A stretch of DNA of 64,000 bases, taken from NCBI GenBank assembly GCA_903885665.1, contig CAISJL010000117.1, forward strand, positions 3,479 to 67,478. Reading direction: 5' to 3'. The DNA is from an uncultured beta proteobacterium. GTDB lineage: Bacteria; Pseudomonadota; Gammaproteobacteria; Burkholderiales; SG8-41. Below the pieces are notes generated by a model. It saw only the letters and a program-made list of their open reading frames with translations, ran no database searches and was not told the DNA's origin. Positions 1-1,539 of the stretch are shown here, piece after piece (positions within the stretch are counted from its first letter, which is position 1; each line of letters begins with the position of its first letter). The translations under genes and the position numbers were made by a program.

Positions 1-9
1 GAATTCCCT

Positions 10-1539
10 ATGAATTGTGTTGAACGTTTAGTGACCTTATTTGGCAGTCAGGCTGAAGTGGCTCGCCGCTTTCGCTTGGATCGTGCGGTGGTAAACCATT
101 GGGTGAAGTCCGGTTATGTGCCGGCACGATGGGCGATGGAGGTCGAGCACATTACTGCGGGACAGGTCGCTGCAGTAGACATACTGAACGAAGCAACATC
201 ACGTAAGCCATTGCGGTTGAAGTCACGCCCCGATGGTGAGAATTTTCTAGCCAACGCCTTAGTAAGGAGTGATTACAGCATGGATAAATTTGCACCCAGT
301 CAACGGATTAGTTCGTTTCACCCACCGCAGCGGACTTTGATGGGACCAGGCCCCACCGAAATTCATCCTCGCGTGCTCACCACCATGAGCCAGCCGGCTA
401 TTGGTTATTTAGATCCAGTATTTGTCGAAATGATGGAGGAGCTGAAGTCCTTACTCCGTTATACCTATCAGACCCACAATGCCTTGACTTTCCCGATTTC
501 TGGACCGGGCTCGGTTGGTATGGAATATTGTTTTGTGAATATGGTGGCACCCGGTGACAAAGTGATTGTGTGCCGCAACGGTGTATTTGGTGGCCGCATG
601 ATCGAGAACGTGGAGCGTTGCGGCGGCACGCCGATTATTGTTGAGGATAAATGGGGCGAGCCCGTGGATCCGCAAAAGCTTGAAGATGCGCTCGTCAAGA
701 ATCCAGGGGTGCGCGTGGTTGCATTTGTGCATGCTGAGACCTCCACTGGTGTGCTCTCTGATGCCAAAACATTGGTGCAAGTTGCACATAAGCATGGTGC
801 TTTGACTATTGTTGATACTGTGACCTCACTAGCGGGTTCTCCGGTATTGGTCGATGAGTGGGGTATTGATGCCGCGTATTCGGCCAGTCAAAAATGTTTG
901 TCTTGCACGCCCGGTCTATCACCAGTCACCTTCTCTGAAGAAGTGGTGAAGTATGTGCAAGCGCGTAAGGACAAAATTCACTCATGGTTTATGGATATGA
1001 ATTTATTGTTGGGTTATTGGGGTGAGACTACGCGGACTTATCACCATACTGCACCGACTAATTCCTTATTTGCATTACATGAAGCCTTGTTGTTAATTCG
1101 CGAAGAAGGTCTGGAGAACTGTTGGGCGCGCGTGCATCGTCACCATACCGCTTTAAAAGCAGGTCTAGAGGCGATGGGCTTGAAGTTTCTAGTGCAGCCA
1201 GCATATCAAACACCGCAGATGAATGCTGTGTATTGTCCAGAAGGCGTGAATGAAGCAGAAGTGCGTAAAACCTTGTTATCGGAATTTGGTTTGGAAATCG
1301 GCGCTGGCCTGGGCCCCTTGGCCGGTAAGATTTGGCGTTTTGGTTTGATGGGTTATTCTTGCCGTCCCGATAATGTGATGCTGTGCTTGTCGGCATTGGG
1401 TTCAGTGTTAGAAGACATGGGGCACGATGTACACGTGGGGGACGCTGAAGCAGCAGCCCATGCCGCTTATGCGTCTATGCACACTACTGCAGCGCAAGCC
1501 AAACTACGTCAAACAGCAAAGACGGGCACGGCGTCGTAA
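10..1539 (+). CDS. Cro/YdaS-like helix-turn-helix domain fused to class V PLP aminotransferase (alanine-glyoxylate/serine-pyruvate aminotransferase type)
   Basis: aa 1-62 (FGSQAEVARRFRLDRAVVNHWVKSGYVPARWAMEVEHITAGQV) has the Cro/YdaS pattern. From aa ~100 there are AGT motifs: LMGPGP, GSGS-like GPGSVGME, VHAETSTGV, IVDTVTS and PLP-lysine SQKCL. The frame is open back to base 1, so the true start could lie outside the window. Confidence 0.85.
   Translation: MNCVERLVTLFGSQAEVARRFRLDRAVVNHWVKSGYVPARWAMEVEHITAGQVAAVDILNEATSRKPLRLKSRPDGENFLANALVRSDYSMDKFAPSQRISSFHPPQRTLMGPGPTEIHPRVLTTMSQPAIGYLDPVFVEMMEELKSLLRYTYQTHNALTFPISGPGSVGMEYCFVNMVAPGDKVIVCRNGVFGGRMIENVERCGGTPIIVEDKWGEPVDPQKLEDALVKNPGVRVVAFVHAETSTGVLSDAKTLVQVAHKHGALTIVDTVTSLAGSPVLVDEWGIDAAYSASQKCLSCTPGLSPVTFSEEVVKYVQARKDKIHSWFMDMNLLLGYWGETTRTYHHTAPTNSLFALHEALLLIREEGLENCWARVHRHHTALKAGLEAMGLKFLVQPAYQTPQMNAVYCPEGVNEAEVRKTLLSEFGLEIGAGLGPLAGKIWRFGLMGYSCRPDNVMLCLSALGSVLEDMGHDVHVGDAEAAAHAAYASMHTTAAQAKLRQTAKTGTAS
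264..282 (+). promoter_or_regulatory. Possible internal ribosome-binding site and in-frame ATG (Met91) for an HTH-less aminotransferase isoform
   Basis: AAGGAG at 264-269, then a 10-nt spacer and ATG at 280-282 in the same frame as the ORF, just before the enzyme domain. Confidence 0.5.

Follow-up and report, generated by a model that had tools for sequence, protein, structure and literature searches.

The window analyzed here, a stretch of 64,000 nucleotides from contig CAISJL010000117.1 of an uncultured betaproteobacterium (Burkholderiales; assembly GCA_903885665.1; G000:C117:3479-67478), begins with a gene of 509 codons (positions 10-1539, plus strand) in which a Cro-type helix-turn-helix (HTH) domain, a basic tail, a linker and an AGXT-type aminotransferase follow one another in one uninterrupted frame. 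That this fusion is real seems to us virtually certain, and the comparison of its relatives makes it fairly probable that the gene gives rise to a long isoform that represses its own promoter and to a short isoform that is the enzyme alone; DNA binding, repression and the production of both isoforms are features that we infer from sequence.

The scheme that we propose starts from a phage-derived Cro domain that would have been grafted, once, onto a housekeeping enzyme of the AGXT family in an ancestor shared by some seven families of uncultured Burkholderiales. Structures have established that AGXT enzymes are obligate homodimers, so that a dimer of the 509-residue protein would carry two Cro domains, the enzyme part probably supplying their dimerization; this long-form homodimer would be set on a 19-bp palindrome, where it would block RNA polymerase and bring about negative autoregulation. 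The first ATG, without a Shine-Dalgarno (SD) sequence and leaderless in some lineages, would allow the long form to be made at a low level, a strong SD at Met91 would drive a 419-residue enzyme-only form, and mixed long/short dimers, with a single HTH, would be poor binders.

The frame is closed by an in-frame stop nine codons 5' of the first ATG, and both Pfam domains are recognized in the 509-codon open reading frame (ORF), in agreement with the preliminary description of this DNA, which had noticed a single uninterrupted frame holding an HTH of about 62 residues and a complete class V aminotransferase. Moreover, at least 120 protein clusters (81-91% identity, 501-530 aa) carry PF15943 together with PF00266, this being so for 120/120 of those listed, and the best 80 species-level genome loci were fused in every case (80/80), all of them in metagenome-assembled genomes (MAGs) labelled Burkholderiales or Betaproteobacteria. 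The preliminary description had considered that the fusion might be absent from relatives; on the contrary, all close relatives carry it, and an origin at a clone end or by faulty assembly was ruled out, since the fusion is found in every relative and the site lies 3.5 kb inside a contig of 161 kb, which is where the window starts. The GAATTC at window base 1 stands there by chance.

The N-terminal domain (aa 1-65; positions 10-204, plus strand) is an all-alpha HTH of the Cro/YdaS type according to Pfam, the AlphaFold2 (AF2) model and Foldseek, with five helices at aa 3-11, 14-21, 25-34, 39-48 and 55-65, among which RAVVNHWVKS (aa 25-34) is the probable recognition helix. Scanned alone, aa 1-90 matched the YdaS_toxin model PF15943 at 36.6 bits over aa 6-59 (cut-off 30), and the full protein did so at 32.2 bits, a match above threshold that bears out the HTH first assigned to this N-terminus. 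The P22_Cro model PF14549 reached 23.8 bits, under its cut-off of 30.2, and the NCBIfam model NF046037 ('carph-isopro') gave 34.0 bits, just under its cut-off of 38 bits; on the latter, most relatives of the genus scored 30-38 bits and one relative from another family 39.1. The domain was modelled by AF2 with a predicted local distance difference test score (pLDDT) of 82-92, and of 82-87 over aa 1-60 in one of the models, and the top Foldseek match was 3BD1, the Cro protein of Xylella prophage Xfaso-1 (TMt 0.87, root-mean-square deviation 1.5 Å, 62 residues); next came N15 Cro, both free and bound to operator DNA (0.73-0.77), and after it YdaS and P22 Cro. By sequence, the nearest solved proteins are again the Cro proteins of Xfaso-1 and P22, the domain has 36-41% identity to small regulators from phages of Pseudoalteromonas, Vibrio and Alteromonas, and it is matched by PHROG families of transcription regulators; the phage-Cro affinity proposed earlier is thus supported by both the best solved match and the phage regulators.

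Conservation within the domain is highest in the turn and recognition helix, where R25, A26, V27, V28, W31 and K33 are invariant or nearly so. When aa 1-90 were compared with 1.84 billion representative proteins to look for fusions of this HTH with further enzymes, only fragments of the same fusion and stand-alone Cro-like proteins of 60-100 aa were recovered, the latter at no more than 47% identity, together with a few longer proteins of unassessed architecture with multiple matching stretches. A separate HTH gene 5' of the unfused orthologues was also considered as the source of the fusion and rejected, none being present in the three unfused loci examined.

Residues 91-509 constitute the enzyme, a class V aminotransferase of the AGXT family, whose members use alanine or serine with glyoxylate as substrates. 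Its Aminotran_5 core (aa 142-433; positions 433-1308, plus strand) scored 75 bits against PF00266 (cut-off 21.5), and matches to solved AGXT members reached 345 bits for 1VJO of Nostoc, spanning aa 11-377 of the 419-residue enzyme part, 291 bits for PucG (3ISL) and about 252-266 bits for mammalian AGT. The lysine that binds pyridoxal 5'-phosphate (PLP), K295 (codon at positions 892-894, plus strand, within SASQKCLS), corresponds in the alignment to the lysine of the SQK motif in 1VJO, PucG and human and mouse AGT. Likewise, D269 (VDTVTSL), the HAETSTG loop, F193 (NGVFGGR) and R443 (IWRFGLMG) align with their counterparts in 1VJO, 3ISL, 3KGW and 4CBR, as, respectively, the aspartate at the PLP pyridine, the phosphate-binding serine/threonine, the stacking aromatic residue and the arginine for the substrate carboxylate. 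The PLP-site residues were invariant in 64 homologues, and the enzyme is intact and looks active. Its nearest NCBIfam model is the BhcA equivalog NF045640, on which it scored 216 bits, below the cut-off of 650; Aminotran_1_2 gave only 25.5 bits on the fusion protein (aa 129-270), and Pfam and NCBIfam scans returned no match to a GntR domain.

Directly after helix 5 stands a conserved basic tail (RKPLRLKSRPDG, aa 65-76; positions 202-237, plus strand), delimited by alignment and by the ratio of nonsynonymous to synonymous substitution rates (dN/dS), with the consensus RKPxRxKSRPDG, in which P67, K71, S72, R73 and P74 were invariant in 77 sequences. The tail is disordered in the AF2 models and may be a DNA-contacting arm lying over the A/T-rich center of the operator. 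It is followed by a variable linker (aa 77-90; positions 238-279, plus strand; pLDDT 25-28, with the dN/dS given below), which holds an internal ribosome-binding site. The layout with a linker of about 30 residues, as originally described, stands with one correction to its extent: aa 65-76 are conserved, and the truly variable linker is reduced to about aa 77-90. Nei-Gojobori estimates of dN/dS (400 pairs, dS about 1) were 0.118 for the HTH (aa 1-58), 0.154 for aa 59-76, 0.326 for aa 77-96 and 0.100 for the enzyme, and the closeness of the HTH value to that of the enzyme indicates that the HTH is translated and constrained like the enzyme.

Through the conserved tail and the linker, the HTH is attached to the extreme N-terminus of the enzyme, a segment that in the AGXT family reaches across the partner subunit close to the entrance of the active site (human AGT, e.g., 1H0C). 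This arrangement would also suit a trigger enzyme gated by a metabolite in the manner of PutA, in which PLP, glyoxylate or an amino-acid substrate alters the two Cro domains and transcription tracks the supply of substrate and not only the concentration of enzyme. Gating of this kind, proposed in the preliminary description, has the same architecture as plain autorepression and would be a refinement of it; nevertheless, we hold it to be rather unlikely, since the sequence data are silent on any dependence on a ligand, the models show a disordered linker, which argues against a tight mechanical coupling, and no second regulated gene or operon partner that would need induction was found.

Autorepression by the long isoform is suggested by the promoter of the gene. 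A sigma-70-type promoter was located at G000:C117:3334-3362 (equal to L002 3334-3362), 116-144 nt 5' of window base 1 and outside the window, with a -35 element TTGTCA, a 17-bp spacer and a TG-extended -10 element TAAATT; it is the only promoter-like site within L002 3200-3800. In fused genes, a 19-bp palindrome, TGTCAAAnTnAnTTTGnCA, overlaps the -35 element and spacer of their own promoter, and the copy that belongs to the gene studied here, TGTCAAATTAATCTTGTCA, occupies L002 3335-3353. The motif TTGTCAAAnTnAnTTTGnCATGnTAnnnT stands upstream of 74 of the 82 distinct fused genes, across families, and in the consensus, built from 43 unique sites, the -35 element and spacer together form the 19-bp palindrome TGTCAAAnTnAnTTTG(a)CA. 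The symmetric positions average 14.7 out of 19, against a background of 4.9, and the spacer is near-invariant at positions for which a promoter has no need. No such palindrome was found in the unfused orthologues (0/25, from nine families, f49 included). Because the palindrome occurs only together with the HTH, and because the spacer is constrained beyond what the promoter needs, the simplest reading is that the palindrome is probably the operator of the fused Cro domain and serves autorepression, and the enzyme-regulator envisaged in the preliminary description is favored by the same observations.

A genome-wide scan (3.03 Mb, up to three mismatches) returned the gene's own site as the best match to the consensus. 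Six other near-matches were inspected, comprising all with one mismatch and five with two, and every one was intragenic, so the search for a regulon by palindrome scan yielded no intergenic site among the other near-matches inspected.

The two translation starts differ in their signals. The first codon is ATG in 81/82 homologues, and no SD precedes it in the 25 genes with a leader (mean anti-SD duplex energy -1.3 kcal/mol, with none at or below -6). The distance from the start of the motif to the first ATG is 33-38 nt in 29/74 genes, a spacing that puts this ATG at the predicted transcription start and thus predicts a leaderless mRNA in those genes. In this species the leader measures 115 nt, the last 9 nt of this SD-less 5' untranslated region being window positions 1-9 (plus strand). 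A riboswitch or otherwise structured leader was considered for these 115 nt and rejected (no Rfam match, folding z-score +1.07). A GC-rich hairpin of 9 bp with a weak T-run, flagged as terminator-like, lies at L002 3380-3415, 64-99 nt before window base 1; it belongs to this species only and is not kept in other members of the genus.

At the second start, an internal SD (AAGGAG; positions 264-269, plus strand) precedes the ATG of Met91 by 10 nt. GGGAG, AGGAG or GGGAA was found 7-10 nt 5' of the aligned Met91 ATG in 81/82 homologues, with a mean duplex energy of -6.8 kcal/mol versus -2.9 for background, and values at or below -6 were reached in 70% versus 12%. The short coding sequence, from Met91 to the stop (positions 280-1539, plus strand), encodes the 419-residue enzyme alone and has the length of the unfused orthologues, which begin 5-15 residues (mostly 11-15) before the conserved SFHPPQRTLMGPGP, in alignment with Met91. 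Since the SD is kept although the codons around it are the most variable of the gene, what is selected appears to be the signal in the RNA, not the peptide. Taken together, the two starts make it probable that the gene yields little of the long enzyme-repressor and much of the short enzyme. The preliminary description had taken a protein starting at Met91 as an objection to the fusion; the conserved SD suggests, rather, that the Met91 form is probably made besides the long form, and the two are not alternatives.

The fusion also has a coherent distribution. It is carried by uncultured betaproteobacteria from freshwater and soil that make up a large clade: when 401 genomes were sampled evenly across the order, about 50 of them, from seven families, had a match covering residues 1-130, and in many other families of the same sample only the enzyme part was matched. 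In a maximum-likelihood tree of the enzyme part, the 82 distinct fused genes make up one clade (Shimodaira-Hasegawa-like approximate likelihood ratio test, SH-aLRT, 97), which also encloses three unfused genes of family f49, a topology that fits one gain and at most one loss. Unfused orthologues with 58-80% identity occur in sister families.

The three f49 loci (G332:C1, L104; G213:C76, L105; G072:C1, L106) closely resemble the enzyme part of the fused genes, and have neither an HTH nor an upstream palindrome; at two of them the gene lies immediately against the 3' end of ttcA, a picture that suggests the clean, secondary loss of HTH and operator. Furthermore, one genome of family f16 has two fused copies (G097:C264:383-769 and G097:C54:22439-22822; 75% and 67% identity to the query N-terminus), which reflect either duplication or contamination of the bin.

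Several points weigh against an autorepressing long isoform accompanied by a short enzyme. The full-length AF2 model, built from a shallow alignment, was of unusably low quality over the enzyme part (mean pLDDT 64) and is uninformative on the placement of the domains in the dimer. No need for a built-in autoregulation is apparent, and a source of glyoxylate is not evident from the genome, in which RuBisCO, malate synthase and a full-length isocitrate lyase were not found. No cultured carrier appeared among the best 160 loci of two genome scans, the second seeded from a complete, fusion-bearing genome of 5.3 Mb; these best loci came from MAGs only. The palindrome is imperfect at position 16, usually T or C and not A, and the copy of this gene has one further mismatch. 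Moreover, the gain of the HTH and that of the palindrome amount to one evolutionary event and not to many independent trials, so that the argument from their co-occurrence rests on maintenance over dS above 1.

Two further difficulties bear directly on rival explanations. The -35 hexamer makes up the left half of the palindrome, so that promoter function alone explains part of its conservation, and no covariation was seen between residues of the recognition helix and bases of the operator. Both facts would fit an HTH that is translated but no longer binds DNA, having been domesticated for protein contact, solubility, localization or RNA binding, with the palindrome as the site of another regulator or a peculiar promoter. 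However, the residues of the turn and recognition helix are the most conserved of the domain, and the restriction of the palindrome to HTH-bearing genes, with no other intergenic copy among the near-matches inspected in this genome, is hard to explain by a separate trans-acting factor, which makes this explanation improbable in our judgment.

Finally, the internal SD could be left over from the ancestral start and decaying only slowly. Leaderless placement is a recognized route to translation without an SD, and the idea that only one product matters, either because Met91 and its inherited SD (Met91 aligns with the unfused starts) are a relic and all protein is of the 509-residue form, or because the upstream, SD-less ATG is hardly used and the HTH region is mainly a leader, whether translated or untranslated, has very little in its favor given an HTH dN/dS of 0.12 over dS above 1, as befits a translated and selected region, an SD hexamer kept in 81/82 genes amid the most variable codons, and a leaderless first ATG in 29/74 genes.

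An autorepressing enzyme of this composition combines traits of several known systems. With the all-alpha phage Cro proteins (3BD1; N15, 2HIN/6ON0; P22, 1RZS) and the PF15943 family it shares the five-helix fold, the size, the position of the HTH and the sequence family, and phage Cro operators are, as is the candidate here, palindromes of 17-19 bp laid over a promoter. Phage Cro and YdaS, however, are stand-alone proteins of 60-80 aa that act in lysis-lysogeny switches or as YdaS/YdaT, whereas here the domain is the N-terminus of a 509-residue enzyme and no phage or ydaT gene lies near the locus. AGXT members such as Nostoc alr1004 (1VJO), PucG of Bacillus subtilis (3ISL) and human AGT (1H0C) are similar over their full length and share the PLP residues, but we know of no solved or characterized AGXT member with a DNA-binding domain.

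The regulators MocR, GabR and PdxR present the same succession of an N-terminal DNA-binding domain, a linker and a dimerizing PLP domain of fold type I. Nevertheless, they combine a GntR winged helix with a class I domain turned into a sensor, whereas the fusion combines a Cro-type HTH with a class V enzyme, and its PLP domain is as conserved as in the enzyme-only orthologues, unlike that of MocR, which is no longer a metabolic enzyme. MocR and this fusion are non-homologous assemblies; the earlier remark that PLP-domain regulators use a GntR winged helix is correct for MocR, but the present protein is no relative of MocR.

Enzymes that double as transcription factors are few among textbook cases (PutA, BirA, NadR). 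The archaeal RbkR is likewise an enzyme with its own DNA-binding domain (PMC5397151). In all four of these trigger enzymes, as proposed here, a single chain works as an enzyme and also represses its own gene or those of its pathway; they differ in that their DNA-binding fold is a ribbon-helix-helix or a winged helix in place of a Cro-type HTH, and in that their regulons and ligand switches have been demonstrated, whereas the present case is known from sequence. To our knowledge, no trigger enzyme has an in-frame internal start that gives an enzyme-only isoform. In the literature we found no description of a Cro-aminotransferase fusion, of 'carph-isopro' or of an HTH-LeuA fusion. If the proposal holds, the protein would represent a new domain combination, with a Cro fold of phage type joined to an active PLP enzyme, spread over about seven families, and could be seen as a domesticated phage repressor module for which a host enzyme provides dimerization; in addition, one frame with an SD-less or leaderless start and an SD-led start could set the ratio of regulator-enzyme to enzyme, the scarce enzyme-repressor and the abundant plain enzyme co-assembling from a single gene.

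A parallel fusion was encountered through the NF046037 model, which matched at 69-72 bits the N-terminus of a frame of about 600 aa in two other families (L206 1489-3183, G029:C1, from about 1089300; L207, G040:C7, from about 351380; also L212-L277). This frame holds a Cro-like HTH of about 60 aa, a linker of 30-40 aa, an SD-led internal Met at the usual start of LeuA, and a complete 2-isopropylmalate synthase. The HTH::LeuA arrangement is present in cultured Neisseriales (Chitinibacter, Deefgea, Chromobacterium, Vogesella, Aquitalea, Neisseria, Snodgrassella, Kingella, Eikenella and others), and at the loci where the LeuA motif is in frame no stop intervenes (51/51), most of them having an SD before the internal Met; other betaproteobacteria matched the LeuA part only. 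Upstream lie palindromes of the TAGACA-N3-5-TGTCTA type, one copy of which overlaps a TTGACA -35 element.

The LeuA fusion thus has the layout of the aminotransferase fusion (HTH, linker, SD-led internal Met, dimeric enzyme), with GACA/TGTC palindromes upstream, and differs from it in the enzyme, in the clade (cultured Neisseriales) and in the arrangement of the half-sites. The HTHs of the two fusions (BLASTP E 4e-5, 21% identity) appear as distant relatives, the aminotransferase HTH being a distinct subfamily. It is conceivable, although we advance it tentatively, that a Cro HTH on the N-terminus of a dimeric enzyme, with the old SD-led start kept as an internal one, is a recurrent betaproteobacterial design that arose at least twice. 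If so, the concentration of enzyme dimer and the ratio of isoforms would be read out by promoter occupancy, in the LeuA case perhaps along with leucine, its allosteric ligand, and the design would have been masked by standard annotation, which begins at the internal start. By the same token, regulatory domains may lie in many of the 'N-terminal extensions' that annotation pipelines cut off, and the occurrence of the LeuA fusion in culturable Neisseriales allows direct tests.

Regarding the genomic setting, the fusion gene is preceded by ttcA and followed by the convergent metF-ahcY, with the end of metF at position 1705 (minus strand). The order midA-SDR-ttcA-[fusion gene]-...-metF-ahcY is kept among relatives, and the gene therefore sits in a chromosomal, housekeeping locus and not on a mobile element. 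A toxin-antitoxin pair or a prophage remnant was ruled out on the basis of this housekeeping synteny and of the lack of a small, ydaT-type partner ORF adjoining the gene. An operon partner was ruled out as well: the genes 3' of the fusion differ from lineage to lineage, from which it follows that the fusion gene is monocistronic. A hairpin between an A-run and a T-run (AAAAAGCACCTCGGTTTTGAGGTGCTTTTTT; positions 1631-1660, no strand assigned), read from the sequence by eye and not by a terminator scan, is likely a two-way terminator common to the fusion gene and the convergent metF.

Elsewhere in the genome, seven paralogues of the isocitrate-lyase/phosphoenolpyruvate (PEP)-mutase superfamily were noted, with open frames of 302-336 aa (G000:C12:14098, C12:14962, C126:37633, C138:52014, C101:9099, C157:73702 and C19:8967), a load of PrpB/phosphonomutase-like genes that is unusual for a genome of 3 Mb. 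A second class V aminotransferase paralogue, 31% identical, lies at C157:81640-82737. At 13 kb from this paralogue, a perfect 21-bp palindrome, TTGCCAAAGTGACTTTGGCAA, was found at G000:C157:68131-68149, inside an ORF of 400 aa (67808-69010, minus strand); each half-site of this palindrome departs from the operator consensus at a single position.

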